Origin: an uncultured Candidatus Saccharibacteria bacterium
GTDB taxonomy: Bacteria > Patescibacteriota > Dojkabacteria > J137
NCBI GenBank assembly: GCA_964607415.1
Contig: CAZSKK010000001.1
Location: 492,939 to 556,938 of the forward strand
Direction: 5' to 3'
DNA: 64,000 nt
In this document: positions 5,076-42,889 of the stretch, in pieces
Position numbering within the stretch: the stretch's first letter is position 1
Layout of the letters: the number at the start of each line of letters is the position of its first letter
Position numbers and translations under genes: made by a program
Notes under the pieces: model-generated
Told to the model about the DNA's origin: nothing
Databases searched by the model: none
Seen by the model: only the letters and a program-made list of their open reading frames with translations

Positions 5076-5191
5076 ATAGTTAGTTGTAAGTGCTATAAAC
5101 AATTTACTAGAAAGGAAGAACCAGCGCAAGATGAGGTTCGAGATAAGTTTAAGTGTAAGATTTAAGAGTAAGGATAAGAATTTGTGATTCT

Positions 5192-5276
5192 TATCGAAGG
5201 AGGGAGTCGAACCCTCACGACCGATAAAGGCCAACGGATTTTAAGTCCGCCGCGTCTGCCATTCCGCCACTTCGAC
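5192..5276 (-). tRNA. tRNA-Leu(TAA), type II with long variable arm.
   Basis: Hand-folded: acceptor GTCGAAG/CTTCGAT with a G-U closing pair, D stem GCG/CGC, anticodon stem GCGGA/TCCGT, anticodon loop CTTAAAA (anticodon TAA), 17-nt variable arm, T stem GAGGG/CCCTC with T loop TTCGACT, discriminator A. No encoded CCA. Confidence 0.85.
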
Positions 5277-5395
5277 ACAATACATTTTTATATTTTAAAG
5301 TTCTAGGAGTCTGCTCCCGCTTCGTAAAACTTCGCGGGACTAAGATCTTCTTACATTCGACAGCACTACGTTTGTCTCATTAAGAATCTCTTGAG

Positions 5396-15123: not shown

Positions 15124-16368
15124 ATGTTGAATTGGGCTGATAGTCTTAACAATCCTGATTCTAATTCAACTTCTCACTTCGAAGCTGCAAATGAACGTCA
15201 TGTTTATCTTCCAGCAATTATAGAAATTTCTAGCAAACCCAGATTGGAAGAAGGCTGGGTACCAATAATTGAAACCAACCCTTCCGGTTTTTGTTTTCGT
15301 ATAAAAGCAGATGAAGTAGGATTCCTGCAACTGTTTGGTTTTAATCTTTCAGAGAATAGAGTTCTAACTAGCTTGCTTCCTCCAGACGAATTTACTAAAT
15401 TTGAAAACATAATCAAAACCGACCTTACTGATCCGTTCTTATTCCAAAAAGCAAATTATCGACACTTTCGAATGTTTACTCCCGATGGAATTTTAAAACA
15501 TGTTGTTACGTCTACTCGTATTCTTAAACGTAACCAGGCCCTCGACGGCTCTTGGGAAATGACTTTAGAAATGGTATTTTTTGATGCAACTGAAGCAATT
15601 GAACCATTAATAGGAAAACAAGATAGTAAAACAGCATCCTTGCTTGAATCATTTATTAGAGATTTGCGAACAAAGTTTAGTATATCTTCTGTAATCATCA
15701 ATCAAATCACAAGTATTCTTGGCAAATTATCAAATACCTTGAAAGAAACCTCAGATATTAATCAAATACAAAAATTAACCGAACAGATTGAAACGCTATC
15801 TTCTTTAAACTTAAGTGCAATTAATAACCAGCAAAAAATAGAATCATCACTTTCATTTTTACAATCTCTTCTAAATTCTTCTGAAAAATTAGCCTCTTTT
15901 AGTCCTGGAATTTGGATAGAGACTTTTAAAACACGTGCATCCACAACACCCTTTGTAAGAGTCATTTCAATCGATGAAACTCTTTCACAAAAACAAGTTT
16001 TTGGCAATGAATCACTTCTTGATTTATCTGTAAAAGTAATTATAAATAAAATTTTTGAGAACCAAGCCGAAGGGTTTAATCTTGAAATTTCAATTGAGAG
16101 AACAGATGATGCAATGTTAATAAAATTGAATAAATCAGATGCTAAGATTATTCATCCCCATCTTTCTCATCTTGCTGCATATTGGCAAAATGATAGTTTT
16201 CTGGATCAAGATCAAATTGAATCCGTAGATGCAATTTATGTAAAAAAAATTATAAAAGAATATTTTGGTGGAAGTATTGATCTTACAATAACACATTCTG
16301 TAGAGGACTTAGCAAGTTTGGAATGCATTATCTCCTTACCTTTCAGGATGGAATCTTCTGAGGTTTAG
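15124..16368 (+). CDS. Hypothetical cytoplasmic protein with a possible degenerate histidine-kinase-like ATPase C-terminus.
   Basis: The C-terminus IYVKKIIKEYFGGSIDLTITHSVEDLASLECIISLPF resembles the G2-box region and LP ending of HATPase_c. No TM and no clear H-box. Confidence 0.4.
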   Translation: MLNWADSLNNPDSNSTSHFEAANERHVYLPAIIEISSKPRLEEGWVPIIETNPSGFCFRIKADEVGFLQLFGFNLSENRVLTSLLPPDEFTKFENIIKTDLTDPFLFQKANYRHFRMFTPDGILKHVVTSTRILKRNQALDGSWEMTLEMVFFDATEAIEPLIGKQDSKTASLLESFIRDLRTKFSISSVIINQITSILGKLSNTLKETSDINQIQKLTEQIETLSSLNLSAINNQQKIESSLSFLQSLLNSSEKLASFSPGIWIETFKTRASTTPFVRVISIDETLSQKQVFGNESLLDLSVKVIINKIFENQAEGFNLEISIERTDDAMLIKLNKSDAKIIHPHLSHLAAYWQNDSFLDQDQIESVDAIYVKKIIKEYFGGSIDLTITHSVEDLASLECIISLPFRMESSEV

Positions 16369-17601: not shown

Positions 17602-18897
17602 ATGCTTAAAATGAGAAGATATGAAGATACCGCGCCACAAATATTAAAAGTCAATTACGATTGTCCTCTTCCTACAACGGCTATTGAAGAGCTCGAAGGT
17701 AGAAAAACTCATTTTTATAGAGAATTTACAGGCGAGGATATCCGTTCATTTTATCAATATTATTCTAAGCGAAAAGAAACTGTTTTAATAAAAGATGAAC
17801 CTGAAGATTTGCCAACATATGAGCAAAAAGAGCAAATTGAACTCCAGAAAATAACAGAAGCAATTTTTGAGGCAGTCTTTTCAAAGCACGATCCAGTTCT
17901 ACTAAAACAAATATTAAAGGGTCAAGAAACAGAGAGGTTTACGGTTCTAACAGATTCTTTAATTAATGCTTTATTAAATCTCGACCTTCCTGAAAGTAAT
18001 CTAGAAATTAATGAGTATGTTCTATCCACTGATACTAACCGTGACAAGCTACTATTTGGAAGATGTGGAGATGGAATTGATATTGCAAGAGCGTATCTTG
18101 CTTACTTAGGTGTAGGATTTGATCCTACTGATATATTGTCTAGGAATGAAATATTTACTAGATTAAGTATACTTTCTAACCTAAAAAGAATTCTCGACCA
18201 AATTCCAACTGATACTGAAGATGCACTACTTTTTAGAAACTCAGTTCATTATAACTTTGAGTATATTGTTCAAACAATTGAGTTGATATTAGGCTCACTT
18301 GAATTAAATGGTTGGGACAAATCGGCAAAGCTTGAGGATCAATTTAAGTATGTGGGCTTAACTGAAATAAGAGGTTTTTATTCATTCAGCTTTGGGCTTA
18401 ATTCCTTCAAGCACTTTTTTAGTAAACTAAATAACTATCCTAATGCCGAAATAAAGTTTAAATACTGCTCAAGAACCAGGATAGTTAGAAAAAAAGCAGC
18501 TCAAGACGAACATATAATTTTCCCCCTAGGTTCTTTTAATCCCAAAGCTGTAGATTCTAAAGGAACAATTCTAAAAGACTTTTTGAATAGGCTTAATGTA
18601 GCATCGTGCATTTTTAACGGAAGAAAAATAGAAAATGGTGAAGATCAAAATTTACCTTATACGAATTTATCAAACAGAAGAATATATGAAATACTTGGCA
18701 AAACTCAAACAGTTTCACTAAATACCGATTTACAATTGGTAAATATGCTTGATAATCAAATAAATTTAGGAATCGAAGATATTCACTGTGCTAAAGGTGT
18801 TCTAAAGTATATTGAATATTTAATTATGTGCCAGAATGAAGAAGTTTCGTATCAAGGAGGGTTTCTTTTGGAGGCTGCTATGCACCACGAAGCATAA
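17602..18897 (+). CDS. Hypothetical protein.
   Basis: 431-aa ORF with no recognisable motif. Preceded by a 360-bp AT-rich leader. Confidence 0.5.
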   Translation: MLKMRRYEDTAPQILKVNYDCPLPTTAIEELEGRKTHFYREFTGEDIRSFYQYYSKRKETVLIKDEPEDLPTYEQKEQIELQKITEAIFEAVFSKHDPVLLKQILKGQETERFTVLTDSLINALLNLDLPESNLEINEYVLSTDTNRDKLLFGRCGDGIDIARAYLAYLGVGFDPTDILSRNEIFTRLSILSNLKRILDQIPTDTEDALLFRNSVHYNFEYIVQTIELILGSLELNGWDKSAKLEDQFKYVGLTEIRGFYSFSFGLNSFKHFFSKLNNYPNAEIKFKYCSRTRIVRKKAAQDEHIIFPLGSFNPKAVDSKGTILKDFLNRLNVASCIFNGRKIENGEDQNLPYTNLSNRRIYEILGKTQTVSLNTDLQLVNMLDNQINLGIEDIHCAKGVLKYIEYLIMCQNEEVSYQGGFLLEAAMHHEA

Positions 18898-23301: not shown

Positions 23302-23667
23302 ATGCAAGTAAATAATCCATACAACAAAAAACTAGTCCATTACTCAAAAGACTTGCGCGCTAATGCAACACCAGGCGAAAGACTACTATGGAAGTTTATA
23401 AACAAAAATCAACAAGGAGTTAAGTTTCGAAGGCAGCACCCACTTCTTAATTATATTGTAGATTTTTACTGTATAAAACTTAGACTTGCCATTGAAATTG
23501 ATGGCAGTAGCCACGATGAAGCTAAGTATTTATATGACAAGCGAAGACAAGTAGAGCTTGAATCTGTTGGCGTTACATTCCTACGCTTCACTGAGCATGA
23601 AACACGTTACAATATCGAAAGTGTATTGCAGACTATTGAGCTGAAAGTATGTGAATTACAGATTTAA
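23302..23667 (+). CDS. DUF559 / Vsr-like endonuclease-domain protein.
   Basis: ERLLWKFI...FRRQHPLLNYIVDFYCIKLRLAIEIDGSSHDE...VGVTFLRFTEHE fits the DUF559 restriction-endonuclease-like fold signature. Confidence 0.7.
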   Translation: MQVNNPYNKKLVHYSKDLRANATPGERLLWKFINKNQQGVKFRRQHPLLNYIVDFYCIKLRLAIEIDGSSHDEAKYLYDKRRQVELESVGVTFLRFTEHETRYNIESVLQTIELKVCELQI

Positions 23668-24311
23668 ATTTCTTGGAACAATGGCATTTGCTCTCCCTTT
23701 TCAATTGTTCTTAAAGATTTTTTTACATACCATTCCCCTTCCCAAAAAGCTACTTTTACATCACTTCCTTCATCTATTTGCCCAGTGTAAACACCTTCCT
23801 CATCAAGCGAAAACTGTATGAAATTGTTCCCATGATAAATACCAACTGGAACTTCTACACCTTCAACAGCTCCAATAGATAGTAGGCCTAACTCGGTTTG
23901 AATATTAAGATAGACTTGTGGATTTTCAGTTTCTGGAACAAATGAAAGAGAAAAAAATTTCTCTTTTGAGATTTGAGAAATATATGCATTTTGTCCTAGT
24001 TCGAAAAAATGCCTATCCTTGCCTATTTTTAGAAATTCTGGAGTGCCATGATTGTCAAAATAAATTTCTCCAAAGCCTGTTTCGGTATGTAGCATCTCAT
24101 AAAGCTCTACTTTTTCATTATACTTACTTGCTATATATATTATAGGCCCCTCATTAGTGGTGATAAATCTTCCAGAATCGTAAGGCTGAAAATAAAAATG
24201 CTTCCCATTACAAGTATTTAATGTATTTGGATTTTCCCATTCATCAAGAAGCAAACTCCCTACATTTTTAATCTCAATAATTTCATCAACTTCATCGACC
24301 TTTTGATACAT
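23664..24311 (-). CDS. Hypothetical protein.
   Basis: 215-aa ORF. 4-nt overlap with the convergent DUF559 gene. Confidence 0.5.
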   Translation of the reverse strand: MYQKVDEVDEIIEIKNVGSLLLDEWENPNTLNTCNGKHFYFQPYDSGRFITTNEGPIIYIASKYNEKVELYEMLHTETGFGEIYFDNHGTPEFLKIGKDRHFFELGQNAYISQISKEKFFSLSFVPETENPQVYLNIQTELGLLSIGAVEGVEVPVGIYHGNNFIQFSLDEEGVYTGQIDEGSDVKVAFWEGEWYVKKSLRTIEKGEQMPLFQEI

Positions 24312-24614: not shown

Positions 24615-25850
24615 ATGACTCCAAAAGACAGAACAATTGATACAGGAATACTAGGTCTACCCTACCCCGTAATTGGACTTGCACCTATTGATGGTGTTTC
24701 TGATGCTGCTTTTAGAAGAATTACAAAGAAATATGGAAATCCTGATTTGATTTTTACTGAATTTACGCATGTAATGGGCTTATGTTTTGCTGCGGAAAAT
24801 ATACTAAATACTTTTGATTATGAAGAAATGGAAAGACCAATAGTGGCACAAATTTTTGGGAAAGACCCAGAGTATTTTTATCACGCTGCAAAAGTGATTT
24901 GTGCATTAGGATTTGATGGCGTTGATATAAATATGGGCTGCCCCGCGCATAGTGTTTCTAGTAAAGGTGCTGGCGCTGGTCTTATAAAAACTCCAGATTT
25001 AGCAAGAGAAATTATTTTTCAAACTAAACTTGGAGTGAGTGATTGGGTTAAAGATGGAAAGCTTACAGGATTGAGGCCCAAAGCACAAAGAGCGATTGAA
25101 AAAATGGCAGAAAGGAACCAATTAAGAGTTACCACCCCCATCCCCTCTTTTTCTCCCCCAGATCTGGGGGAGAAGCCGAAGGCAGAGGGGGTGGGGGTGA
25201 CTAACCTGCTCGCTCGCGACTCGAAGCTGGTAGCTCGTAGCTCAATCCCGGTTTCGGTCAAAACGCGTATCGGTTACGATGAACCTGTTACTAAAAGCTG
25301 GATTAAAAATCTTGAAAAAGGAAACCCTCAGTGGATTACAGTTCATGGACGAACTTTAAAACAGATGTATACAGGAAATTCAGACTGGAACCAAATTAAA
25401 ATTGCAGTAGAAACCACAGATATACCTGTTATGGCAAACGGTGATGTTAAAGAACACGCAGATATACAAAAGATTTTAGATGCAACAGGAGCTAAAGGGA
25501 CGTTAGTTGCAAGAGGTGCGTTTGGTAACCCGTGGATTTTTGCCTCACCCCCTGCCCCTCTCCTTCAGGAGAGGGTGGCAAGCGCAAGCGAGCCGGGTGA
25601 GGTGTTAGCTGTTCTTCTAGAACACGCCAAACTTTTTGACGAACTGAATAACTACTCCGAAAAAGCATTTGTGCAAATGCGAAAACATTTTGCATGGTAC
25701 ATTAATACAATTACCAAAATGCAAGGAACAAATAACAATAATGTTAAGTTTTTCTTAAAAATGAAGGATTTAAAGACGAAATTGATGCAGGTGAGTAGCT
25801 CAAAACAGGTGGAGCGAGAGGTAGAAAGCTTTAGAGCAGTAGAGCGTTAG
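24615..25850 (+). CDS. tRNA-dihydrouridine synthase (Dus family) carrying two in-frame GC-rich insertions.
   Basis: Dus motifs NMGCP, KTRIG, HGRT and GNPWIF are present. The insertions are TTPIPSFSPPDLGEKPKAEGVGVTNLLARDSKLVARSS and ASPPAPLLQERVASASEPGEVLAV. Confidence 0.8.
   Translation: MTPKDRTIDTGILGLPYPVIGLAPIDGVSDAAFRRITKKYGNPDLIFTEFTHVMGLCFAAENILNTFDYEEMERPIVAQIFGKDPEYFYHAAKVICALGFDGVDINMGCPAHSVSSKGAGAGLIKTPDLAREIIFQTKLGVSDWVKDGKLTGLRPKAQRAIEKMAERNQLRVTTPIPSFSPPDLGEKPKAEGVGVTNLLARDSKLVARSSIPVSVKTRIGYDEPVTKSWIKNLEKGNPQWITVHGRTLKQMYTGNSDWNQIKIAVETTDIPVMANGDVKEHADIQKILDATGAKGTLVARGAFGNPWIFASPPAPLLQERVASASEPGEVLAVLLEHAKLFDELNNYSEKAFVQMRKHFAWYINTITKMQGTNNNNVKFFLKMKDLKTKLMQVSSSKQVEREVESFRAVER
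25131..25258. repeat. GC-rich imperfect palindromic element inserted in frame in dus (palindromic core 25133-25199).
   Basis: cacccccatcccctctttttctccccca gatc tgggggagaagccgaaggcagagggggtgggggtg. No stop codons in the gene frame. Confidence 0.55.
25543..25604. repeat. Second GC-rich palindromic element inserted in frame in dus.
   Basis: cctcacccc ctgcccctctcc ttca ggagagggtggcaagcgcaagcgagccgggtgagg. It shares the GGGTGGC..GCCGGGTGAGG motif with the elements at 5634-5657 and 42417-42439. Confidence 0.5.
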
Positions 25851-25944: not shown

Positions 25945-26790
25945 TTAAAAGTTCGCTCGATTTTCACTATTTTTATTTTTTACAAAAGCTTCCTTTTTTG
26001 TTTCCAATTCACCAATTAGACTATCTATCCTAGTAGTGTAAGTACTATTATTCCTATCCCTAAAAGATTTTCTTAAAACTCTTAAAGCTACAATATCAGC
26101 ATCAATAGCCGCTTCTTGATCTTGCATGTTTGAATAGTCTAAGTTTTCCATCTCTTCTAACTCTAAAATATCTCTTCTGTTTTCAAGATTGTCAAGTAAA
26201 GGCTTAACCGAAGGATCATCAGCGTACATTTCTAAAATTGCAATTACTGAATTTAATTCTTCTTTATTAACTGTTGCTTTGCTAATTAATTCTTTTGCTT
26301 TATCTAGTGCATTAAGTTTTGCAACCTGATCAATCTTTTTGCTATTGGCAACTAAGGTATCAGCTGATTGTAATTGTCCATACATATCATAATAACTTGA
26401 AATTGTGTCACGATTTATATATCCTAAACCTTCTTCAACAACTTCATAATTTCCTTTCGTAAGCAATTCTAAATTTCTTTGCTTTTCTTCTTCTGTTTCA
26501 CCTAGAGATAGCCTTTTTTCATGTTCTGATTTAAGTTTGTCTGCTTGTGTTTCAAATTGTTGCCCTGCTAAATTGTTTAGTTTATTCAATAGTTTAGACT
26601 TTTGTTCAGCTGTGAAATTACCTTGAAATATAGCGTTTCTAAGCTCAGCTGGATCATTTTGTGAATCCAAAAAATCTTGAAAAGCTGCATTTGGATCCTG
26701 TGCTACTTCACCACCTGATTGACCTGTGATTCCTTGCGATCCTGCATCTGTTGTAGCTTCAACTTCATCAGTAATTTCTTCTTGTGCCAT
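25945..26790 (-). CDS. Hypothetical coiled-coil protein, the last gene of the giant-protein operon.
   Basis: 281 aa, acidic and helical. 4-bp gap to the upstream gene. Confidence 0.5.
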   Translation of the reverse strand: MAQEEITDEVEATTDAGSQGITGQSGGEVAQDPNAAFQDFLDSQNDPAELRNAIFQGNFTAEQKSKLLNKLNNLAGQQFETQADKLKSEHEKRLSLGETEEEKQRNLELLTKGNYEVVEEGLGYINRDTISSYYDMYGQLQSADTLVANSKKIDQVAKLNALDKAKELISKATVNKEELNSVIAILEMYADDPSVKPLLDNLENRRDILELEEMENLDYSNMQDQEAAIDADIVALRVLRKSFRDRNNSTYTTRIDSLIGELETKKEAFVKNKNSENRANF

Positions 26791-26793
26791 TAT

Positions 26794-27498
26794 TTAAGGT
26801 ATAACTTGTAGTAATAATTTAACCATTGCAAGAACTGATTCATCTATATTTACTAAAAGTTGATCATCTTTTCCAACTGTCAAATCAATCACATTGCCAT
26901 TAAAGTCACAGATTTCAACGTATTGAAGATTTTGATCATCTAAAACTTCTAGTTGAATTATAATTTGATCAAAAAGAACAAACAAAAATTTCTTCTTTGA
27001 ATCTGACTGTCTACACATTAAAAGCAGGTATTCAGTAAGTACTTTTTTAAAATCAATCTCTTTATTACCATCCATTGCTTCGTAATTACCAAAATCAATT
27101 GATTCGTATGTTTGAATTGTAAAGAATGTTTTAAGTGTAGATAGTTTTTGCCAAACTAATTCTTTAAAAATATCGTTTTTAAATTTTACTGGATCGATTT
27201 TTGCATCTTTTGCAAAAAGAACTTTAGTTTTTTCGTCTATAAATGCATATATAGATTTTTCGTTATTCTCTGTTACTTCTAAAAGTTGAATTTGAACAAT
27301 ACCACCCTGAAATTTAATAAAAATATATGTATTATTTTCTGAATCTTTTAAGCTAACTATTGAACCCAAAACCAAAACTTCTTGGTTATATTTATCCAAA
27401 AGTTCTGAAGTTATAGGCTTATCATCAAATGTTTTGTAAGTTTCTACCAAGTACTTTAAATTTTGTTGTGTAAAGAACGTTATTGGTTGTTGTGTCAT
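26794..27498 (-). CDS. Hypothetical protein in the giant-protein operon.
   Basis: 234 aa with no TM. Confidence 0.5.
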   Translation of the reverse strand: MTQQPITFFTQQNLKYLVETYKTFDDKPITSELLDKYNQEVLVLGSIVSLKDSENNTYIFIKFQGGIVQIQLLEVTENNEKSIYAFIDEKTKVLFAKDAKIDPVKFKNDIFKELVWQKLSTLKTFFTIQTYESIDFGNYEAMDGNKEIDFKKVLTEYLLLMCRQSDSKKKFLFVLFDQIIIQLEVLDDQNLQYVEICDFNGNVIDLTVGKDDQLLVNIDESVLAMVKLLLQVIP

Positions 27499-27508
27499 AG
27501 GTCTATAT

Positions 27509-28687
27509 TTAAATCATTAATATTCCTCGCATTATTGCTAAAGCCTGATCTTTATCTTCTCCAAATCTATTTCTTACACCTTCCACTTCATCATAGGTCT
27601 TTTCAAGCCAAGATTGTTGGTCTGTAGGGCCCATTTCGCTAAATGATCGATAATTACTTCCAGCCAATTCTAATAAGCTAGCTTTATTTCTAATTCTTTG
27701 CATAACTCCTCGATGAATTCTATTTCCATCCCTCTCATCTAAGCCTCCACCTGTTTGTGGACGCGCTCTCTCTCCATCAGCTGCTTGTTTTCTTGCTCTT
27801 AAATAATCCTGTTCAGCACCAGGTCCAAATACACTAACTTCTCTAGGTGGCACCGGGCCAGTTTCAGGATCACCAAGTTCAGGAATACCATAAGAGCGAT
27901 AGTCTGGTACCGTATGTATCTGGACGGTAGGATTATTTACAGCTGTTTCAGCTACTTGCGATGGCGGAGTATAATTACGAGTATTACCAGCTGCATCTGT
28001 ATATTGTGTAACAGTATACCCTGCTCTTCCTTCCAGTCCTGAATAAGGGCCGTAATAATCTCCGTCTGGACCTGTAGCATTTACATAAGTATCTGAGGAC
28101 AAAACTATACCAGGTAAAGTTTGATTTGACTGGTTAGTGTTTTCAGGTGTTTCAGCGTTAGCAGGACTCTCACCTTGCGAACTTAAATCGTTAGGCGGAG
28201 ATTCTTCTTCGATTAAATCAGGAGTTGGCATAAAATCACCTTTTTCTCCTTGTGGGTTTAGCTTATCTATTAGTGCCGGTTTTGAAGTATCCTCAATTAC
28301 AGTGGATGTTTTCTCCTCACTTTTAGTTCTTTTTGGGTGGTTTTCACTAATTTGTTTTTCAGCATCTTCCGGACTCACACCATGTTTTATAAGATCATTA
28401 AATTCTTCAAAAGCGGCTTGTCCGTAAGCTTGTCCTATTCTTTCAGCTGTATTGAAATATTCTGGTATTGCTGTCCCATTGGGTTGGCTGACATCTTCTC
28501 CAGGTTCTTCACTAGCTGATGCAGGTGGCTGCGATTGGGCAAATACTGCTTCTCCCTTACTAACATCACCAAACTCTGCACCTTCACTATTACGATTTGA
28601 TTTTAATGGTGGTGCAGGCGGTTCTTTATACCCAAGTACCGCTGGGAGACCTGCAGGTACAGGTTTAGGAATAAACTGTTCCGGCAA
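27509..28687 (-). CDS. Pro-rich hypothetical protein, most likely the frameshifted C-terminal continuation of the giant protein 28603..33546.
   Basis: The track start is TTG. The same frame stays open upstream to an in-frame TGA (plus strand tca at 28781-28783) and reads plausibly there (RKNCNIYDKVQQARAKRAFDDYDDALKNGTELPEQ). The giant ORF's last ~45 aa look like out-of-frame junk. Confidence 0.45.
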   Translation of the reverse strand: MPEQFIPKPVPAGLPAVLGYKEPPAPPLKSNRNSEGAEFGDVSKGEAVFAQSQPPASASEEPGEDVSQPNGTAIPEYFNTAERIGQAYGQAAFEEFNDLIKHGVSPEDAEKQISENHPKRTKSEEKTSTVIEDTSKPALIDKLNPQGEKGDFMPTPDLIEEESPPNDLSSQGESPANAETPENTNQSNQTLPGIVLSSDTYVNATGPDGDYYGPYSGLEGRAGYTVTQYTDAAGNTRNYTPPSQVAETAVNNPTVQIHTVPDYRSYGIPELGDPETGPVPPREVSVFGPGAEQDYLRARKQAADGERARPQTGGGLDERDGNRIHRGVMQRIRNKASLLELAGSNYRSFSEMGPTDQQSWLEKTYDEVEGVRNRFGEDKDQALAIMRGILMI

Positions 28688-31600
28688 TTCAGTACCATTC
28701 TTAAGTGCATCATCGTAATCATCAAAAGCCCGCTTTGCTCTTGCTTGCTGAACCTTATCATATATGTTACAGTTCTTCCTTCACCACTTATACTGGCAGG
28801 AGTTTGTCTTGCAGTTTGTGGCGGTAGTGCTTGCAGGTCAGCCACTGGAGGTGGAACTAGTTGGTTAATTATATTAGATGGGTTATTTACAATATTTATA
28901 GCCCTATCAAGTATTTGATTAATTTTTTCTGAATCTGTTGTAGGTATAATGTCAAAATCTCCATTATTGTATTCTATTTGAACAAAATCCTTGTCTCTTT
29001 TTACACTAGTAGGTAATTTAGGTTGGCCAATTATATTTTGTGGTGGCTGATCTGCTGTTCGTTTCACAGGTTTATAAGCAACGCCATTTCCCGTTACACG
29101 ATAAGCTCCATCAGGTATACGCTGACCAGCTTCAAGCATATAAATTTTTCTTACCTCTCCAGGGTATTGATAAAATATTTGCTCACCATTTTCATCATAA
29201 GCATCTTGTCTTAATGGAGGCCTAACTTTGTCATCACCTGCTCCCATTCCACCCCCTACTGGATGCGCTCCATCAGGTAAGGGATTATTGCTATTCCACA
29301 AAGTTTGTTGGCCATTAGGATATTGAATTGTAATGTACGGAGCTCCTTGTTCAACTGTAAAATTACTTGGTCCTTGTGTCTGTCTCAATGGTGGATTACC
29401 TACTGTTGCCTGATTGCCTGCTGTAGTCTGTGGAGGTACATACTGTCCACCAGGCGCAGGAACTTGATTAACTCCTGGTGGGAGTGGAATATTAGCAGGC
29501 CATGGTGCAACAGGACCTCCTGGCGCCTGATAGTAAATATAAGGTACAGGATTATTTGGCATTGCCTGAGGCGGAATACCAGTTGCCGGTTGTCCTCCTG
29601 GAGCTTGTGCTCCAGCTAATGGCTGTGGATTAAGATTTGCCTGACCATATAACGGCTGTAAAGCATTTACTAAATTAATTGCAGCATTTGGATCAGGAGC
29701 CTGAATTAACAATCCTCCACCAGGTGTAATTTGTACAACTACCCCTTGTGCAGGTGCAGGATTAGCTGCTGGATTTCCTGCCGCTACTCCGCCCCCAGCT
29801 CCTGGTTGTTGCTGTGCAATAATATTCAACATCTGCTGCATAATACCAGCCATTCCATTCATTGCGTCTGCAATTGGTGTTAAATCAACATTATTTGTTA
29901 TCTGGAAAGCTCCAGGCTGAATATTCATTTCATTATTAAAAGAATCAGTATTAGTATTATTACCGAAATTACTCATTGGCTGTGGTGGAACCACAACTGG
30001 TGCTGCCGCATTTCCTAAGCCACCCCCACCTGCTGCATTTGCATTAGCTGGTGGTTGTTGAGGAGGCTGTTGTTGCTGTTGCAGATTTTGCGGCGGAATA
30101 TTAGGTGGATTATTATTGCCTCGACCTCTACCAGTCCTGAAAATAGTTCTAGTTGCCAATGCCCCTAAAGCTCCTAAACCAATCAATGATAAACCTAGCA
30201 CGGCTGCTGCTTTAGTCAAATCTACATCACGCATTCTCTTCAAAAAATCATTTTCAGTAATCTCAACTAAAGCACCACCTTGATTATCAAAATACATTCC
30301 ATTAACCATTACAAGCTCCCCATCTTTAAATGCTCTAGACATGTATATTCCATTATTAGGATCTAATGGAACTCCATTTCCTCCGTAAATAATAGCTCCA
30401 TTTACACCGTCGTCAGAGTTTTCAGCCCAGTATAAAACTTGATCTCCATAGTTAACTTGTTGCCAATTTGTTTCATAGCCGGAAGCTTGAAGAGCCGCAA
30501 TAATTGCTGGATCATTGTGATGATCCCAAGGCATTATTGTTACAGTTATAGGCGCTCCACCAACTACCGGTGTATATGTAACTTCTACTGCTGGCATAAT
30601 TGGTGTACCTCCAGCTCCTATCAATCCTCCACCTGGTGTTATTACTCCTGCTCCCGCCGCTGGAACTCCAGGTAGTGCACCTGGTCCAACTACTCCTGGT
30701 GTTGCTGTAGCTGCATTTAATTTACCAACAGCTCCATCCCAAAAAGGATCCACATTTGTAGTTCCTGGATAATAATTTATAGCCATTGGACCTTCAGTGC
30801 CTGTGATTACACCGGTTTTGAAATCATTAACTAATGTATCTAATTTTGTTGTATCTGGAATAGCGCTCGTTCCTACACCACCTGTAAAATACTTCCCTGC
30901 ATTTACATCTGCATAAGTAGGACCAGCGGGATCTTGCCCTTGAACTATTCTCCTTGCTATATCTAGAGCTATTGCTTCCTTATCCGTTGGAGTCATCGAT
31001 GCGAACGCTGCTGAATCAAGCCCATAATCTTCAGGTCTAACTCCACCGTTCAAATCCGCTAGTACGTGTTGTGCAATAAAAACAGCTGTTTGGCGTTCAT
31101 TTTCAAAACTAGATCCTGCACCGGTAATCCAACTTACAACTGCTGGGCTTGTAGTACCATATCCACTACTTACTACTCCCGGTGCTGCTGCACCTGGGGC
31201 AGCTGGTGCTCCTACTGCTGGTCCGCCTACAAATCCTGGTGGCAAAGCACCTGCACTTGTTGGAGGCATCGTTATTGGTAGCCCAGCTGTACTAATTCCT
31301 CCTGGAGGAGCTAATACTAAACCTGAGGGTAATCCTGTAGGAAGTGGCATTCCTGCTGGACCGTAGTTTGGTATAGATCCATCAGCTGAATAAATCAAAT
31401 TTCCTACTATTGGTGTTCCTGCTACTGGCGCCGGGGCACCTGCGGGGATGCTTATATCAATAATGTACTGTACTTGCAATACGTCGTTGGCACCTGGCCC
31501 ATTTCTAAAAACTATATATTCTAAACCGGGGTCTGTGTCCATATTAGCCGCGAAAACCTGGTCGCCTCCGGGGATTACACCCAAACCTTCATGCCTCAAA

Positions 31601-33546
31601 GGTCCAAACCCTGCGGCAATAACTCCTCCTCCGGCTCCTTGAAGAGGTATCAATTGAGGACTTGGAGAGCGTTGATCTATAAATCCTAAAATGTGCCCAT
31701 CCCCATCCATAACTATTTCCATTGGAACATTTTGACCATCCGCAAAAACATTTATGTCTCCAAAGTGGGAGCCTTCCCTCACAACTTCCATTGGCGCTAT
31801 ACCATTATTAATTATCAAGTGCTCTTCAATTACGCCAGATCTTACATGTCCTCTCGGTATGCCCCACTTTAAAGGATCGTCAATTGGAACTGGGCCTCTT
31901 GGTGGTCCCTTTTCGAAAGGTTTTAAGTTTTCTAACTTTTCATCAAGTAAGTTTCCCTTCTCTCCTATTTCAACAGGGCTCTTAGTTGTTTCCTCAAAAC
32001 CCATAAATTCACCTGCTTTACCTCCTTTCCCTGGAGTTGGTAAACCAGGTCTACCTTTCGCTTGTGGTAAAAATTGTTCAAGTTGGTTTGGTTCATTATT
32101 ACTTCCCAAAGTAGTCTCAAGATTTTGCCTTACACCTCTAATTGAAAATTTGTCAAGAAAATCGTTTCCAACTAATTGAAATTGAACCAATAATGCCAAC
32201 GATCTCATTGCAGAAACATTTCTAGAAAAGTCTTTTTGAATATTTTCTATTTCTTTATTTTCATACCCTAATGCCTTTAGCCCTCTTGCGCCAACCATTC
32301 TAAACATTAAAACAGGTGCAAATGTTGATAAACTTCTTCTAACTGTCCAAGCCATTGCTCTATCTGCCATTCGAGATTTCATTACATCCAAGCCAAGCTT
32401 ATTTGCAAGGCTACCAGCTAAAATTCCACTCCCTTCACTAAAATATGTTCCTGGGAATAATAAAAATGCTGTAGCGGGCAAACTTAATACTGTAGAAGTA
32501 AAAAACTCTTTAAATGACCTATTACCATCTATTGCCCATTCCTTAACTCCTCCCAGCAAACGTTGAATTGGTAATCTTCCCCAATTTAACATTCTAGATA
32601 AATCTACAAATGCATTTTGTCCTGCAAGCTCCATTCCTTTTTGCGCACCTTTTTCCATAAACTTTGACATTTGAATTCCACCTCCGATCATTGCTGCGGC
32701 AGTTAACCCCAGCTCAATACCTTCACCAAGTGTTCTAATAGCATTCCTAGGAGACAAAACAATATTTTTAAATGTGCCAGCTAATCCCTCTCCTAAACCG
32801 GTGCTCTTTAGTATTTGTTTTCTTACAAGCTCAGATTCATCATTATCAATATTTAAATCTATTGCTTGCTTTTCTTTATTAAGTCTAATTTTAACTATAC
32901 CTTGTTCATTATTATCTTCTCTTTCAATATTAAGTTTTTCTCCCCATTTATAGTTTCCTTTTGTATATAAACCCATATATTTACGAATTCCAAGAATATC
33001 TTTAGTTGGATCTTCGTAAATACCAAAGTTCTCCATAAACTGCTTTTGCCTATTTAAAGCATTTATTAATGGAATGTTTTTTTGAATATTTCTGGGAAGT
33101 GATTCTATAGCTCTTCTAAAGCCACTCTTAGTCTGTTCTTCCTTTTCAAATTCATCCGCTAAAATTTCTGCAGCCACCCTCTCTTTAGTTTTTTCAGAAT
33201 CTTCAATTGTATATTCCTGGTATTCTAACTCCTTTGCATAATCACCGTTTCTTCTTCTGGTTAAAGCCAATTTGTCACCTTTTTTCAACAGCACAAAGTT
33301 TTGATCCTTTGCTTTTTTAACTAAAGCATCTACTTCTTCAGCAGTAAGATCGCCTATTTCAACTACTTTATTTTCTTTTTTTGCGAATCTATTTTTGGGA
33401 AGAATATCAGATACTTCTAAAAGTATCTGCCCTGCTTTTTGCTCAGAAGTTAGCATTGCCTCATTTTCCGGGGAGATTCCAGTATCAAGATTATCTGTAA
33501 TATCTATTGCTCCAGAAATTATTTGGTTTGGATCAGCATTACTCAT
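28603..33546 (-). CDS. Giant (1647 aa) surface or membrane-associated protein. It has a ~350-aa N-terminal domain, Gly-rich hydrophobic helices, a central globular region, one TM-like segment and a long Pro/Gln/Ala/Gly low-complexity tail.
   Basis: A single long ORF. Hydrophobic segments include GIELGLTAAAMIGGGIQM, FTSTVLSLPATAFLLFPGTYF and LGLSLIGLGALGALA. The DNA is locally GC-enriched from Pro/Gly/Ala codons. Overlaps the upstream gene by 8 nt. Confidence 0.6.
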   Translation of the reverse strand: MSNADPNQIISGAIDITDNLDTGISPENEAMLTSEQKAGQILLEVSDILPKNRFAKKENKVVEIGDLTAEEVDALVKKAKDQNFVLLKKGDKLALTRRRNGDYAKELEYQEYTIEDSEKTKERVAAEILADEFEKEEQTKSGFRRAIESLPRNIQKNIPLINALNRQKQFMENFGIYEDPTKDILGIRKYMGLYTKGNYKWGEKLNIEREDNNEQGIVKIRLNKEKQAIDLNIDNDESELVRKQILKSTGLGEGLAGTFKNIVLSPRNAIRTLGEGIELGLTAAAMIGGGIQMSKFMEKGAQKGMELAGQNAFVDLSRMLNWGRLPIQRLLGGVKEWAIDGNRSFKEFFTSTVLSLPATAFLLFPGTYFSEGSGILAGSLANKLGLDVMKSRMADRAMAWTVRRSLSTFAPVLMFRMVGARGLKALGYENKEIENIQKDFSRNVSAMRSLALLVQFQLVGNDFLDKFSIRGVRQNLETTLGSNNEPNQLEQFLPQAKGRPGLPTPGKGGKAGEFMGFEETTKSPVEIGEKGNLLDEKLENLKPFEKGPPRGPVPIDDPLKWGIPRGHVRSGVIEEHLIINNGIAPMEVVREGSHFGDINVFADGQNVPMEIVMDGDGHILGFIDQRSPSPQLIPLQGAGGGVIAAGFGPLRHEGLGVIPGGDQVFAANMDTDPGLEYIVFRNGPGANDVLQVQYIIDISIPAGAPAPVAGTPIVGNLIYSADGSIPNYGPAGMPLPTGLPSGLVLAPPGGISTAGLPITMPPTSAGALPPGFVGGPAVGAPAAPGAAAPGVVSSGYGTTSPAVVSWITGAGSSFENERQTAVFIAQHVLADLNGGVRPEDYGLDSAAFASMTPTDKEAIALDIARRIVQGQDPAGPTYADVNAGKYFTGGVGTSAIPDTTKLDTLVNDFKTGVITGTEGPMAINYYPGTTNVDPFWDGAVGKLNAATATPGVVGPGALPGVPAAGAGVITPGGGLIGAGGTPIMPAVEVTYTPVVGGAPITVTIMPWDHHNDPAIIAALQASGYETNWQQVNYGDQVLYWAENSDDGVNGAIIYGGNGVPLDPNNGIYMSRAFKDGELVMVNGMYFDNQGGALVEITENDFLKRMRDVDLTKAAAVLGLSLIGLGALGALATRTIFRTGRGRGNNNPPNIPPQNLQQQQQPPQQPPANANAAGGGGLGNAAAPVVVPPQPMSNFGNNTNTDSFNNEMNIQPGAFQITNNVDLTPIADAMNGMAGIMQQMLNIIAQQQPGAGGGVAAGNPAANPAPAQGVVVQITPGGGLLIQAPDPNAAINLVNALQPLYGQANLNPQPLAGAQAPGGQPATGIPPQAMPNNPVPYIYYQAPGGPVAPWPANIPLPPGVNQVPAPGGQYVPPQTTAGNQATVGNPPLRQTQGPSNFTVEQGAPYITIQYPNGQQTLWNSNNPLPDGAHPVGGGMGAGDDKVRPPLRQDAYDENGEQIFYQYPGEVRKIYMLEAGQRIPDGAYRVTGNGVAYKPVKRTADQPPQNIIGQPKLPTSVKRDKDFVQIEYNNGDFDIIPTTDSEKINQILDRAINIVNNPSNIINQLVPPPVADLQALPPQTARQTPASISGEGRTVTYMIRFSKQEQSGLLMITMMHLRMVLNCRNSLFLNLYLQVSQRYLGIKNRLHHH

Positions 33547-34027
33547 TCGATTTAGAACTTATTTGAATTTTATCTTCAATTTCTTTTTTTATTCTTTCTA
33601 AATATAAGCTTTCCAACTCATTCATATATTCGTTAAATTCTTTAACAAAATCTTCTTCCGGTTCATCTTTAAGTTTATCAACAATATGAGCCACAGTTTT
33701 ATAATGGCTCTCAATTGATTCAACCAAGCTGTCGAGAAAATCCGCAACAAGTTGATCAACATCTTTACTAGTTTTTTTATTAAAACAAAATGCAACATAT
33801 TGTTCAGTTTCAAAAGCATCGTATTCCCTAGCTTCTGACACCTCCTTCATAGCCTTCAGTTCTTCATTAGTAAAACCTGTTTCGTATAAATTTTCAATAA
33901 ATCTAGAAATAGTAGGCTCCAAAAACATAGCGAAATCTTCGATCTGCTTGCTATTATAGCCCATATCTTTCAAATGCTGCAAAAATCTTTCAGGTTTGGA
34001 CATATATAATGAAAATATCAACAGCAC
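33539..34027 (-). CDS. Acidic hypothetical protein, the first gene of the giant-protein operon.
   Basis: 162 aa, rich in Glu/Asp/Lys, helical. Confidence 0.5.
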   Translation of the reverse strand: MLLIFSLYMSKPERFLQHLKDMGYNSKQIEDFAMFLEPTISRFIENLYETGFTNEELKAMKEVSEAREYDAFETEQYVAFCFNKKTSKDVDQLVADFLDSLVESIESHYKTVAHIVDKLKDEPEEDFVKEFNEYMNELESLYLERIKKEIEDKIQISSKSNE

Positions 34028-34102
34028 GTAATATAAAAACGTAAATCTACGTCTTAGTACCAGTGTATAACTTTTTCAAAATGGCTGCAAATGGGAAAAG
34101 AA

Positions 34103-34176
34103 TCAGTTACGAATTACGATTTAGAAATTACGAGAAACAGAATCAATTACTAATTACGAGATCTGAATTACGAGAA
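34103..34176 (+). repeat. Array of AATTACGA(G/T) repeats (about 5 units, plus strand) immediately upstream of the four-helix-bundle gene.
   Basis: cagttacgaattacgatttagaaattacgagaaacagaatcaattactaattacgagatctgaattacgagaaag. Confidence 0.6.
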
Positions 34177-34316: not shown

Positions 34317-34679
34317 ATGAAATACAATATCCTTCAGGAAAAATCATTAGCTTTTTCTATTGAAATAATATCTTTTTGCAAGCTATTAAGAAATAATAAA
34401 GAATTTGTTCTTGCTGATCAACTATTAAGAAGCGGAACTTCTATTGGTGCCAATGTAGAAGAAAGCATAGGAGCAGCTTCTACAAAAGACTTCTTATCTA
34501 AATTGACTATCGCATATAAAGAAGCACGTGAATCCAAATACTGGTTAACACTTATAGATAAATCTTTTCCAGAATGCGCAGATCAAGTGCTACAGCTATT
34601 AAATGCTAATGAAGAGCTTCTTAAAATAATTGGAACGATCCAAATAAAAACTAAATCAAGAATTAGACCTCGAGATTAA
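34317..34679 (+). CDS. Four-helix-bundle protein (23S rRNA intervening-sequence protein family).
   Basis: LLRSGTSIGANVEESIGAASTKDFLSKLTIAYKEARESKYWLTLI matches the family signature. Confidence 0.75.
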   Translation: MKYNILQEKSLAFSIEIISFCKLLRNNKEFVLADQLLRSGTSIGANVEESIGAASTKDFLSKLTIAYKEARESKYWLTLIDKSFPECADQVLQLLNANEELLKIIGTIQIKTKSRIRPRD

Positions 34680-36310: not shown

Positions 36311-36562
36311 ACTTACCAGATGATTCGATGTGGAAGGTCTATTACAGCTAATATCGCTGAAGCTTATGGGCGTTTCGGATTTAAAGACAGCAGAAGAATA
36401 TACATATTTGCTCGAGGATCCATGTTTGAGCTTAAAGATCATCTGAACGTAGCAATCGAAAACGAGTTTATTTCTCTAACCGAATTTAATGAATCAATAA
36501 CGATATTAATTAGGAAATTGAATGCTTATTTAAAATATCTTGGAAGAAAATCCTTTGACTAA
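36311..36562 (+). pseudogene. N-terminally truncated fragment of a second four-helix-bundle protein gene.
   Basis: TYQMIRCGRSITANIAEAYGR...IFARGSMFELKDHLNVA matches the C-terminal two thirds of the family. In-frame TAA and TAG stops at 36299-36310 close the frame upstream, so the N-terminal helix is missing. Confidence 0.55.
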
Positions 36563-39111: not shown

Positions 39112-40245
39112 TTAATCACCAATCCTCTTTCTAAACATAAACAATAAACCTGCAAATAATGACAGCGCTCCGATTATATAAAAATACGGAAGATTATCAG
39201 CAACACCTGTGGAAGGAAGATTAGAATTATTAGATGTATTTGTTCCTGTGTTTGTATTAGTGTTAGTATTTGTATTGTTTGAGCTCCCAGCTAAAATTGT
39301 AAATGTATCTGTATTACAAACACTACCATTTAAAAAGCAACTGGCAGAGTAATTACCTGCCGCTGAAAGAGTTACATTTCTTACCTCATTAGTACTATAG
39401 TTAACGATACTACCACTTGGTGAAGTTAAGATAATACTAGCTCCAGTTAAAAGTGCAGCACCATTTTCTGTAAAACAATTTATATGAAAACTACTTGCTG
39501 GAGTTCGTAAATTCATGGCTGAAACCTGTGCTCCACTCATCCAAGCACTAATGGTTCCTTGCTCAAACTGAATATCAGCGCCAGCACATCCACTAGCAGT
39601 TGAAACTGCATTATCTAACCCTCCACAGTATGTGTTTATAAATACTTCACTTGCTGTTAGCTCATTTACATCTTGGTCATAAAATTCAGTACAAAATGCC
39701 TTACCAATATTTGCTTTTGACCCATCTGGACAGGTTATACAAGCAAGGTTCAAATCTCGGTCACATTCATCATTATTTGCTGTAACTAAATCAGAATCAC
39801 AACTTTCACCTTCATCTTTAATTTCTGAATAACCCGAAGTATCACAATCGGTGGAACAATTTGTTACTGATTCACCTGATTCGCAAATAGCATCACCATC
39901 GCAAACTGAAGCATTGTCGCTGCATGCTGAGCACTCGCCTTTATTACATGCTTCGGTTCCAGCTGTAAAATCACCATCGTAATTTGAACAGGCTGAATCT
40001 GAACAACAAGTTGTTGTTTCACCTGAAGTATCCTTGTCTTTATCACTCCTAGATTGCAAAGCTATATACGTTGAGATCGCAATAAGCCCAAAAGTTACCA
40101 TCGTCAGAACTATTATTGCAGCTACTCTTTTCGACTCCTGAACCTTAATTCTGGAAAGATTGGGATTCAATCTTGGAGGATCAACCGGCTGATTAGCAAA
40201 GCCATTTGCTTCGTTTATTTTTTGAATATCAGCTTCGGGATTCAT
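39112..40245 (-). CDS. Cys-rich surface protein with an N-terminal signal anchor, an (NT)n repeat and a C-terminal LPXTG-type sorting signal.
   Basis: C-terminus NLPSTGVADNLPYFYIIGALSLFAGLLFMFRKRIGD: an LPSTG motif, a hydrophobic segment and a positively charged tail. No sortase gene is present in the window. Confidence 0.55.
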   Translation of the reverse strand: MNPEADIQKINEANGFANQPVDPPRLNPNLSRIKVQESKRVAAIIVLTMVTFGLIAISTYIALQSRSDKDKDTSGETTTCCSDSACSNYDGDFTAGTEACNKGECSACSDNASVCDGDAICESGESVTNCSTDCDTSGYSEIKDEGESCDSDLVTANNDECDRDLNLACITCPDGSKANIGKAFCTEFYDQDVNELTASEVFINTYCGGLDNAVSTASGCAGADIQFEQGTISAWMSGAQVSAMNLRTPASSFHINCFTENGAALLTGASIILTSPSGSIVNYSTNEVRNVTLSAAGNYSASCFLNGSVCNTDTFTILAGSSNNTNTNTNTNTGTNTSNNSNLPSTGVADNLPYFYIIGALSLFAGLLFMFRKRIGD

Positions 40246-42439: not shown

Positions 42440-42889
42440 CTACTTTTGCCACTGGCATTTATTACTAGCACTACATCCACATTTATATCCCGCTTGTGTT
42501 GGTGTATCTTGTGCTGGTGCCAAGCAAATAGATGACATTAATTCTTCGTTAATTCCTTGGCAAATTTCCATGTTACATCCAGATACAATACAATCAGAAT
42601 CTGCATTACAAGATGAAAACGTTGAGCTTCCATAATAATCAGTGTTTTCACCCGAATCTAAATTATCTTGCTCCTCTTGGGTCAATTGTCTTATGAAAGT
42701 TGTTCCATCTGGTGTTTTGCACTGCTCTGGATAAGTTTCTAAAATTGGATTTCCAGCTTCCACACATTCCTCATATGAATTTATTTCTTCGTTATCATCT
42801 TTAATCAGAACATATGAAATTACACCTGCAACGCTTGCAATAATAAAAAACAGTATCGCAAAGGTTACTACTAATGTTTTATTTTTCAT
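42440..42889 (-). CDS. Small secreted Cys-rich protein.
   Basis: Signal peptide. About 10 Cys in the mature part (SSTFSSCNADSDCIVSGCNMEICQG...CGCSASNKCQWQK). Confidence 0.5.
   Translation of the reverse strand: MKNKTLVVTFAILFFIIASVAGVISYVLIKDDNEEINSYEECVEAGNPILETYPEQCKTPDGTTFIRQLTQEEQDNLDSGENTDYYGSSTFSSCNADSDCIVSGCNMEICQGINEELMSSICLAPAQDTPTQAGYKCGCSASNKCQWQK

Follow-up and report, generated by a model that had tools for sequence, protein, structure and literature searches.

What does a protein of about 2,000 residues with no recognizable domain do in the reduced genome of a bacterium within the CPR (Candidate Phyla Radiation), and do the two overlapping open reading frames (ORFs) that encode it form one gene or two? 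These questions are raised by a cassette in the stretch of DNA studied here, which is 64,000 nucleotides (nt) long as a whole and is called the window below; all coordinates are counted within it. Five mechanically detected ORFs lie on the minus strand between 25945 and 34027: the first at 33539-34027 (162 aa from a GTG codon), the giant ORF at 28603-33546 (1647 aa), the third at 27509-28687 (392 aa from a TTG codon), the fourth at 26794-27498 (234 aa) and the fifth at 25945-26790 (281 aa). A preliminary description regarded them as a five-gene operon built around a giant membrane or surface protein with a probable -1 frameshift. The coordinates, the strand and the tight packing proved exact, but the cassette consists of four genes, called here A, the giant gene, C and D. 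This anatomy is held with much higher confidence than any function. The function that we favour, tentatively, is that the giant protein is an undescribed, lineage-restricted and recombining membrane protein, anchored twice, which contacts or recognizes an external partner and works with cytoplasmic partner proteins.

The 1647-aa and 392-aa ORFs are one gene, since the orthologues are read in a single frame. The original frame is coding from 33546 to 28781 on the minus strand, up to about aa 1595. Beyond this point the mechanical ORF runs on out of frame to 28603, so that its last 52 or so residues look foreign, and the Pro-rich sequence is carried on in the -1 frame. This 3' part of the gene (27509-28780, minus strand) has about 417 codons between a TGA at 28781-28783 and the stop codon at 27509-27511, and the conserved C-terminal domain lies at its end. 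The two parts meet in a patch of 24 nt (28754-28777, minus strand), which includes an (AT)3 tract at 28760-28765 and is bounded by the shared sequences ...agtggtgaagg and gttcag.... In the homologous locus L024, which is 92-98% identical to the window around this site and remains in a single frame throughout the DNA alignment, the patch has 22 nt. When one TA is deleted from the catatatg run at 28760-28765, the translation becomes ...GEGRTVTY-DKVQQARAKRAF... and a protein of 2011 aa results, which at its C-terminus can be aligned right up to the ends of the uninterrupted orthologues (L008, L009, L011 and L006). The gene is an intact single ORF in L006 (2047 aa) and in the distant L012 (2129 aa); uninterrupted ORFs cover at least 838 aa of the C-terminal part in L008, L009 and L011, and at least 1670 aa in L024. 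On these alignments the break is a fixed insertion-type lesion of +2 nt (TA) that shifts reading into the -1 frame. Thus, the next ORF does continue the protein in the -1 frame and the fused length is about 2,000 aa, as had been proposed, but no decoding event is involved.

Programmed -1 frameshifting was considered and rejected on three counts. No slippery heptamer of the form X_XXY_YYZ exists in the overlap (28603-28800 was scanned), the gene is single-framed in L006, L008, L009, L011, L024 and L012, and the window differs from L024 by +2 nt. The lesion is not a read error but real in the genome, since five fetched loci (L001-L005) have an operon 100% identical to that of the window, break included, and the 1647-aa product was found on 12 contigs by exact-sequence look-up (runs SRR298502xx, SRR7051042 and SRR22443710). 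The five loci come from runs SRR29850202/08/09, SRR7051042 and SRR22443710 and match the window at 100% over up to 8 kb, whereas alleles in other samples are only 65-90% identical to it. Identical contigs from three accession series of the Sequence Read Archive mean either a very widespread clone or samples of common source; a literature search by run accession, aimed at the habitat, found no paper. The (AT)3 tract is short for phase variation and is identical in the five assemblies, a comparison made at assembly level only. Gene callers annotate a 289-aa remnant of the 3' part, which is present on 13 contigs. The 1.27 kb of this part still contain no stop codon and evolve at a ratio of nonsynonymous to synonymous divergence (dN/dS) of 0.34-0.41 against L008, so the lesion is either recent or tolerated as a split gene. 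A practical lesson is that a two-ORF 'frameshift' in a giant gene of low complexity was resolved as a 2-nt lesion by comparison of strains.

The modules of the giant protein were delimited by comparing the window protein with its homologues in L006, L020 and L024 and with P0014, the protein of L012 (L012 1912-8301). The order begins with a soluble N-terminal part (aa 1-260) that has no signal-like segment. It is followed by a Gly-rich region of hydrophobic or amphipathic helices (aa 266-479; 32110-32751, minus strand), which is the best-conserved part of the protein and the core of the match to P0014; aa 251-500 are 95% identical to L020 with dN/dS of 0.06. After this region come the conserved PQAKGRPGLPTPGKGGKAGEF motif, a beta-rich stretch (aa ~560-700) and a first Pro/Gly/Ala spacer (aa ~700-790), nearly uncharged, in which 57 of 100 residues are P, G or A. 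The next module, aa 800-950 (30697-31149, minus strand), is helical, allelic and highly divergent, and has Pro/Gly/Ala-rich spacers on both sides; the second spacer (aa ~940-985) leads to another beta-rich module (aa ~985-1090). A strong transmembrane (TM) helix (aa ~1110-1134; 30145-30219, minus strand) is then followed by the Arg-rich cluster RTIFRTGRGRG, a tail of some 750 aa in which Pro, Gln, Gly, Ala and Asn abound, and a conserved, charged C-terminus of about 120 aa. The low-complexity region and the TM-like segment (aa 1113-1131) of the preliminary description were therefore both found. Its several Gly-rich hydrophobic helices stood as a Gly-rich helical region, in which only aa 348-366 are even marginally TM-like.

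On a Hessa-type sum, the distal helix is the sole clear membrane span, with values of 0.2-1.0 across the homologues; in the window protein its core (aa 1113-1131) has a sum of 0.2 and a Kyte-Doolittle hydropathy of 2.1, and aa 348-366 have a marginal sum of 3.5-4.9. The 20 residues after the helix carry a charge of +3 to +6 and no acidic residue in 5/5 homologues, and the 20 residues before it are net negative, again in 5/5. Since the C-terminal flank is Arg-rich, the positive-inside rule, which is established knowledge and was applied here by hand, predicts that the chain crosses from outside to inside at this helix. On this prediction aa ~480-1107 are extracytoplasmic, and the long tail is cytoplasmic. 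A return pass is then required upstream, and we infer that the chain goes from inside to outside within the conserved Gly-rich helical region. The Pro/Gln-rich tail is thus predicted to be probably cytoplasmic and not a surface fibre, so that the surface placement given to it in the preliminary description is probably wrong; only the middle segment of about 600 aa would be a candidate for surface exposure. Motifs of the DxNxDGxx[DE] kind, as in extracellular Ca-binding repeats of the FG-GAP type, occur upstream of the TM helix once in L006 and twice in P0014 and are absent from the window protein. The L006 orthologue has a single sub-threshold FG-GAP match, 15.7 bits against a cut-off of 22.1, which leaves it outside that family. 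Such motifs are a weak hint of an extracytoplasmic location. In P0014, two long internal repeats (aa ~985-1330), each opening with DxNNDGxxD (aa 991 and 1174), stand in place of the helical module flanked by Pro/Gly/Ala spacers, and for this reason the segment between the membrane parts appears to be modular and lineage-specific. An aromatic/Gly repeat in the C-terminal half, GPDG..YY...P.G[FYW], was not reproduced by a pattern search of the window protein. An AlphaFold2 model of aa 1-1140, made from a two-sequence alignment, had a predicted local distance difference test score (pLDDT) of 32.5, too poor for fold assignment; in this low-confidence model the region of aa 266-479 is drawn as helices.

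Gene A (33539-34003, minus strand) encodes an acidic protein of 154 aa (pI 4.6) without a hydrophobic segment. Its acidity agrees with the preliminary description, but gene callers start it at the ATG at 34003 and not at the GTG at 34027, which shortens it from 162 aa. Its stop codon overlaps the start of the giant gene by 8 nt, in ATGAGTAA. The protein is 91% identical to the L020 copy, 60% to the L006 copy and 34% (E 2e-31) to the product of a 142-aa gene that abuts the giant homologue in L012. Gene C (26794-27498, minus strand) follows the giant gene after a gap of 10 nt and encodes an acidic protein of 234 aa (pI 4.6), whose sole hydrophobic segment, at aa 168-189, is internal and weak. 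No other gene in the cassette is as well conserved, and no homologue of it was found beyond its own cluster; a 240-aa gene in L012 was considered as its orthologue and set aside, as neither BLASTP (E 0.048) nor hhalign (probability 0.2%) was significant. An AlphaFold2 model of C from five near-identical sequences (pLDDT 38) has two tandem units, each a sheet of 4-5 strands plus a helix, and Foldseek found no PDB structure that matches it at E 0.001 or better. Several of its weak Foldseek matches were to nucleic-acid-binding folds of the beta4-alpha repeat type (PUR-alpha, p32, MRP1/2), which recall the two predicted units; with probabilities below 0.2, they are a lead and not evidence.

Gene D (25945-26790, minus strand) begins 3 nt after gene C and encodes an acidic, mostly helical protein of 281 aa without a hydrophobic segment (A and D have pI values of 4.5-4.6). 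The N-terminal half varies and the C-terminal 100 or so residues are conserved. The label 'coiled-coil' given to it earlier is weakly supported, by a single heptad-like stretch near aa 159-192. Gene D is absent from L012. In two metagenome-assembled genomes (MAGs) of Dojkabacteria, L014 and L015, two minus-strand genes of similar size after the dihydrouridine synthase (Dus) gene were tried as C and D; they have no similarity to these and encode secreted or TM proteins. Since A, C and D are acidic and have either no hydrophobic segment (A and D) or one weak segment (C), all three are predicted to be cytoplasmic. By hydropathy, none of the four proteins begins with a hydrophobic stretch such as a signal peptide would give. 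As the preliminary description had it, no catalytic motif was recognized in any of the proteins, and no other domain match was found.

The alleles of the cassette are mosaics. Synonymous divergence (dS) and dN/dS were calculated by the Nei-Gojobori method (NG86) on codon alignments, and identities along the giant protein were taken per 50-residue bin. Gene C is 97% identical in amino acids to L006 and L008 (about 85% in DNA; dS 0.23-0.24, dN/dS 0.05), and Dus is 88-89% identical to that of L008 (dS 0.40, dN/dS 0.18). Gene A is 60% identical to L006 with dS of 1.6 and dN/dS of 0.19, and aa 251-500 of the giant protein are 58% identical to L006 with dS of about 2 and dN/dS of 0.17. The helical module of aa 800-950 is 37% identical to L020 in the codon alignment (26-34% per bin; dS 1.67, dN/dS 0.40), whereas its flanks are 84-100% identical to L020 with dS of about 0.6, and the module itself is 94-96% identical to L024. 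Gene D is 66% and 42% identical to L006 and L008 by BLASTP (68% and 48% in the codon alignments), with dS of 0.77 and 1.0 and dN/dS of 0.28 and 0.42, respectively. For the same pair of genomes, dS spans 0.2-2.0 along the locus. L020 is of the window type throughout except in the module of aa 800-950. L024 has an L006-type gene A and an L006-type aa 1-500 of the giant protein, is then 92-98% identical to the window type, and switches further near aa 600-800 and 1450-1600.

In every segment dN/dS lies between 0.05 and 0.42, and it is below 0.25 over most of the giant gene, so each allele type is a working coding sequence under purifying selection. Deep allele classes with sharp breakpoints and purifying selection within the classes form the pattern of loci that face a variable partner, and this is how we read it; disorder alone would not be expected to yield saturated dS or a divergent structured module. 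Across the recombinants gene A segregates together with the N-terminus of the giant gene. Because it is translationally coupled to the giant gene and inherited with the N-terminal 500 residues, A is the likeliest direct partner of the giant protein, as a putative chaperone or subunit. The co-inheritance and the coupling would be compatible with physical pairing, and also with mere adjacency.

The distribution of the cassette is narrow. Pfam, NCBIfam and PHROGs (cut-off E 0.001) gave no match for any cassette protein, and PADLOC defence models gave only sub-significant noise. There was no match among PDB sequences, with the proteins taken singly or as profiles, none by tblastn in 50,697 phage records and none in plasmid records, so that the proposal of a system without a characterized match held in every library tried. 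An exhaustive phmmer search of aa 1-1200 of the giant protein against 1.84 billion cluster representatives returned nothing but a fragment of the query itself and P0014, a protein of 2129 aa that is 34% identical to it over aa 95-475 (E 3e-38). Searches with the N-terminal alignment of the giant protein found nothing in the GTDB species representatives, JGI metagenomes or IMG/VR, and a search of JGI metagenomes with the gene A alignment found nothing either. A word-index search with the 2011-aa fusion and the N-terminal alignment also returned nothing, but it missed P0014, which is present in the collection, and is thus uninformative. The nearest species representatives by Dus alignment are Candidatus Dojkabacteria MAGs (46-51% identity), in which no cassette was found beside Dus.

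Gene A and the giant gene occur in every lineage found, and C and D in the closer ones, so the conservation of the cassette in related genomes is graded. The L012 locus contains the 142-aa A-like gene, the giant gene, the 240-aa gene and a convergent Dus gene, whose product is 56% identical to that of the window. The cassette has kept the same chromosomal spot since Dus lineages now 56% identical diverged, which points to vertical inheritance and not to mobility. The window, L006, L020, L024 and P0014 all have the acidic upstream gene, the Gly-rich helical region, the distal TM helix with an Arg-rich C-terminal flank and the low-complexity tail, and we propose them as one family. On present matches the family would be confined to a narrow clade of Patescibacteria, namely the species cluster of the window and one distant lineage so far. 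It does not belong to phage tape-measure proteins or a prophage, as there is no PHROG, phage-record or IMG/VR match and the genes around it (Dus, SufB, tRNA synthetases and others) are not of phage type. Nor does it belong to type IV or type VII secretion (VirB6/TrbL, EsaA/YueB), in the absence of any Pfam, NCBIfam or plasmid match; VirB4/VirD4/EssC-type domains were also absent from the 20 neighbouring proteins scanned.

These results may be put together as follows. The organism is a bacterium of the Patescibacteria (CPR), whose nearest sequenced relatives are Candidatus Dojkabacteria, and the cassette would be a vertically inherited, lineage-restricted chromosomal unit in which A (154 aa) precedes the giant gene (about 2011 aa), with C (234 aa) and then D (281 aa) behind it. 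The N-terminal 260 or so residues of the giant protein, which have no N-terminal hydrophobic segment, would be soluble and cytoplasmic, and the Gly-rich helical region (aa ~266-479) would lie in or on the membrane. The next 600 or so residues, consisting of beta-rich modules and the strongly allelic helical module between its two Pro/Gly/Ala spacers, would be outside, and the strong TM helix at aa ~1110-1134 would return the chain to the inside. There the Pro/Gln/Gly/Ala-rich tail and the conserved C-terminal domain, about 880 residues in all, would stand alongside A, C and D. The exposed part may meet a variable outside partner, which could be a phage, a sibling cell or the surface of a host cell, and the cytoplasmic part may couple this contact to the invariant internal component C. 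Such a role fits the pattern of the alleles, which are old, divergent and shuffled by recombination in A, the giant gene and D, with C and the flanking genes conserved. In the strain of the window the TA insertion truncates the tail after about aa 1595 and separates the conserved C-terminal domain from it.

Several points weigh against this proposal and keep it tentative. The topology was derived from the positive-inside rule and crude hydrophobicity sums, and the N-terminal 'membrane' helices are only marginally hydrophobic, so the pass from inside to outside is assumed. The AlphaFold2 models, with pLDDT of 32.5 and 38, are unusable as evidence of fold. The fast divergence of the tail could reflect mere disorder and not selection by an outside partner. 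The partners and the localization are predictions. The gene is broken in the strain examined, and its intact function may be dispensable. The 240-aa gene of L012 has no detectable relation to C, and the conserved core may be only A and the giant gene. A fuller version of the proposal must be regarded as distinctly unlikely. It holds that the cassette is an undescribed recognition apparatus of a CPR lineage related to Dojkabacteria, that the shuffled module is shown on Pro/Gly/Ala stalks to a host, sibling or phage, that the tail and the C-terminal domain couple contact to C, that the old alleles are held by frequency-dependent selection, and that the TA insertion is a loss-of-function or off-state variant.

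Of the other explanations, the one that survives best, though it is still unlikely, places the protein on the cytoplasmic face of the membrane as a tethered, largely disordered scaffold that organizes the shape of the cell, its division or a polar structure. Its cytoplasmic subunits would be A, C and D, and disordered linkers under relaxed constraint would account for the variability; analogies would be the mycoplasma attachment organelle with its Pro-rich cytoskeletal proteins, or the Pro/Gln-rich linker of FtsK. Most of the mass of the giant protein (the N-terminal 260 or so residues and the tail of about 880 aa) is indeed predicted to be cytoplasmic, as are all three partners; a dN/dS as low as the 0.05 of gene C would be expected if it binds core machinery; and in L012 the genes mraZ, rsmH and ftsI are about 3 kb from the cassette. 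However, the deepest allelic divergence is found in the structured module upstream of the TM helix (aa 800-950), where the saturated dS points to old alleles and recombination; in the window no division gene adjoins the cassette; no similarity to a cytoskeletal family was found, including by the Pfam EAGR/APR-type models; and the strain in which the gene is broken is evidently thriving in several samples.

An improbable alternative is the one nearest to the preliminary description, namely a surface adhesin or fibre with the Pro/Gln/Ala/Gly-rich (PQAG) region outside, produced at full length by programmed -1 frameshifting and served by small genes as secretion or chaperone accessories. Surface proteins of monoderms commonly span the wall with Pro/Gly-rich segments, and the size, the Pro-rich low complexity and the tight operon would fit such a fibre, as would the hypervariable C-terminal half. 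Giant membrane proteins have also been proposed as host-attachment factors in another CPR bacterium (PMC8080830). Against recoding stand the missing slippery heptamer, the single-frame orthologues and the break itself, which is a 2-nt difference in length. Against a fibre, the giant protein has no N-terminal hydrophobic segment and no LPXTG (LP.TG) motif, and its TM helix and Arg-rich cluster are internal, with 880 aa after them; the Arg-rich cluster follows the TM helix directly in 5/5 homologues and so speaks for a cytoplasmic PQAG tail. As for the accessory proteins, they lack export signals, and no family of chaperones or secretion proteins matches them.

Quite improbable is decay, in which the lineage-specific gene would be dispensable, or left over from a mobile element, and without current function in this strain. 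It would account for a lesion fixed in every copy of the strain, for the orphan distribution and for the dN/dS downstream of the lesion, which is among the highest of the locus. Yet 6 kb contain a single lesion, and downstream of it the frame has stayed open for 1.27 kb; the low dN/dS over most of the gene and the intact orthologues in four lineages argue in the same direction, as do the synteny with Dus across a deep divergence and the lack of a phage, plasmid or integrase signal at the cassette (PHROGs, phage and plasmid records, IMG/VR). A locus of antagonism or kin recognition, resembling polymorphic toxins or contact-dependent systems, with specificity or toxicity in the variable parts and immunity proteins or adaptors in the small genes, is very improbable: its mosaic, recombining alleles, its large protein followed by small acidic genes and its Gly-rich hydrophobic helices, which recall membrane-inserting toxin segments by resemblance only, are set against an extreme C-terminus (about 120 aa) that is conserved and not variable, a gene C that is 97% identical whatever C-terminal allele precedes it, a gene D that varies opposite to the giant C-terminus, and cassette proteins in which no toxin, immunity, Rhs/LXG/WXG or secretion-system domain and no export signal was detected.

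The surroundings of the cassette are ordinary chromosomal genes. One flank is the convergent Dus gene (24615-25850), and the other is a gene for a 23S-rRNA-intervening-sequence protein (PF05635) followed by sufB; farther out lie several tRNA synthetases, an LPXTG protein and a lamin-tail-domain protein. The region upstream of gene A (34004-34176, minus strand) is conserved among strains, with blastn identity of 75-80% to L006, L020 and L024, and is a candidate promoter or leader. The blastn homology with these three loci begins at 34176, and past it the PF05635 gene is non-orthologous. Scans for promoters and terminators gave more sites in shuffled controls than in the sequence itself and are thus uninformative, and no promoter was demonstrated upstream of the cassette. 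The PF05635 gene between sufB and the cassette is at 34317-34679 (plus strand), and a second such gene is at 36320-36562 (plus strand). The corresponding genes are at 251-616 in L006, 2762-3127 in L020 and 238-603 in L024; relative to gene A, the window copy has the opposite strand and lacks nucleotide homology to them, unlike sufB and about 150 nt upstream of gene A, which align with all three. The two small PF05635-type genes thus flank sufB and behave like replaceable or mobile cassettes. The G+C content of the window is about 33% and rises to 0.42-0.44 at 28-32 kb, which overlaps the Pro/Gly/Ala-rich coding sequence; this coding may be the cause of the rise.

Some other ORFs of the window may be mentioned. 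The LPXTG protein (39112-40245, minus strand; 377 aa) has a C-terminal LPXTG cell-wall anchor signal, which suggests that this organism has sortase-dependent surface display, a route not used by the giant protein. The adjacent large ORFs 566-2650 and 2652-5234, both on the minus strand, share a C-terminal part of about 103 aa that is 67% identical; one of the pair matches a WbsX-type glycosyltransferase and the other a right-handed beta-helix. Since the mechanical ORF 2652-5234 overlaps tRNA-Leu (5191-5277), its true start must be farther downstream. Mid-sized ORFs (215-664 aa) without a Pfam match are found at 12977-14971, 15124-16368 and 17602-18897 (plus strand), 23664-24311 (minus strand) and 44959-46233 (plus strand), and the first four have no significant NCBIfam match either. 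The 664-aa ORF shares a short N-terminal motif (about 40% identity over about 40 aa) with ORFs 42440-42889 and 44067-44801.

To our knowledge, how ultra-small cells of the CPR/Patescibacteria recognize partner cells and attach to them is largely unknown, and most of the candidate proteins are unannotated. The present locus is a bounded candidate: the family has no detectable relatives outside one narrow clade, the segment predicted to be exposed exists as old recombining alleles, and the predicted cytoplasmic partners are co-inherited with it, one of them being nearly invariant. If the exposed module tracks the identity of a host or phage, it would make specificity accessible to study in a lineage that is uncultured. 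CPR genomes commonly encode orphan membrane proteins, and if this is merely a fast-evolving one, it is one of many and of modest interest. What the locus appears to offer is an unusually clear signature of allelic mosaicism in an uncharacterized, narrowly distributed cassette, for which any function is a prediction.

The cassette can finally be compared with known systems. Like genes with programmed -1 frameshifts (dnaX, the phage tail chaperone G/GT, insertion sequences), it has two overlapping ORFs of which the downstream one is in the -1 frame; unlike them, it has no X_XXY_YYZ in the overlap, it has single-ORF orthologues, and it carries a 2-nt insertion. With polymorphic toxin and contact-dependent inhibition loci it shares a large protein, parts of which recombine and diverge strongly, and the small genes that follow it, and it differs from them in its conserved C-terminus, its invariant downstream gene and its lack of toxin, immunity or delivery domains. 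EsaA/YueB of the type VIIb secretion system and the YhgE/Pip phage-infection proteins are proteins of monoderms in which two membrane parts enclose a large extracellular loop. The giant protein resembles these in its predicted layout of membrane part, large exposed segment and membrane part without an outer membrane, and its exposed part could plausibly contact a phage or partner; in contrast, it has no Pfam or NCBIfam match and no EssC/Esx genes nearby, and it adds a cytoplasmic Pro/Gln-rich tail and a soluble N-terminal domain.

In the mycoplasma attachment organelle, the P1 adhesin has a Pro-rich cytoplasmic tail, and HMW1, HMW3 and P65 have acidic Pro-rich domains. A minimal genome, very large, acidic and Pro-rich proteins of low complexity, a Pro-rich tail, cytoplasmic or predicted to be so, behind a TM helix and co-operonic accessory genes are common to both, whereas the giant protein has no sequence similarity or Pfam match to that organelle and no signal peptide, and comes from an unrelated lineage. 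The closest comparison is with Vampirococcus lugosii, one of the episymbiotic or predatory CPR bacteria, which has giant membrane proteins with WD40, PKD, integrin, fibronectin and DUF11 domains and a proposed role in cell contact (PMC8080830). Both cases concern a reduced-genome CPR host and a predicted membrane protein of more than 1,400 aa that has no catalytic domain and for which contact with another cell is proposed. The window protein differs in that it has no recognizable interaction domains, both of its ends are predicted to be cytoplasmic, and it is accompanied by three conserved cytoplasmic partner genes. By analogy, the cassette may work most like the loosely defined giant, lineage-specific membrane proteins for host contact in CPR bacteria, and it is a member of none of the classes compared. 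Its sequence appears to be unrelated to anything described, but roles like the one presumed for it have been proposed before in CPR bacteria.

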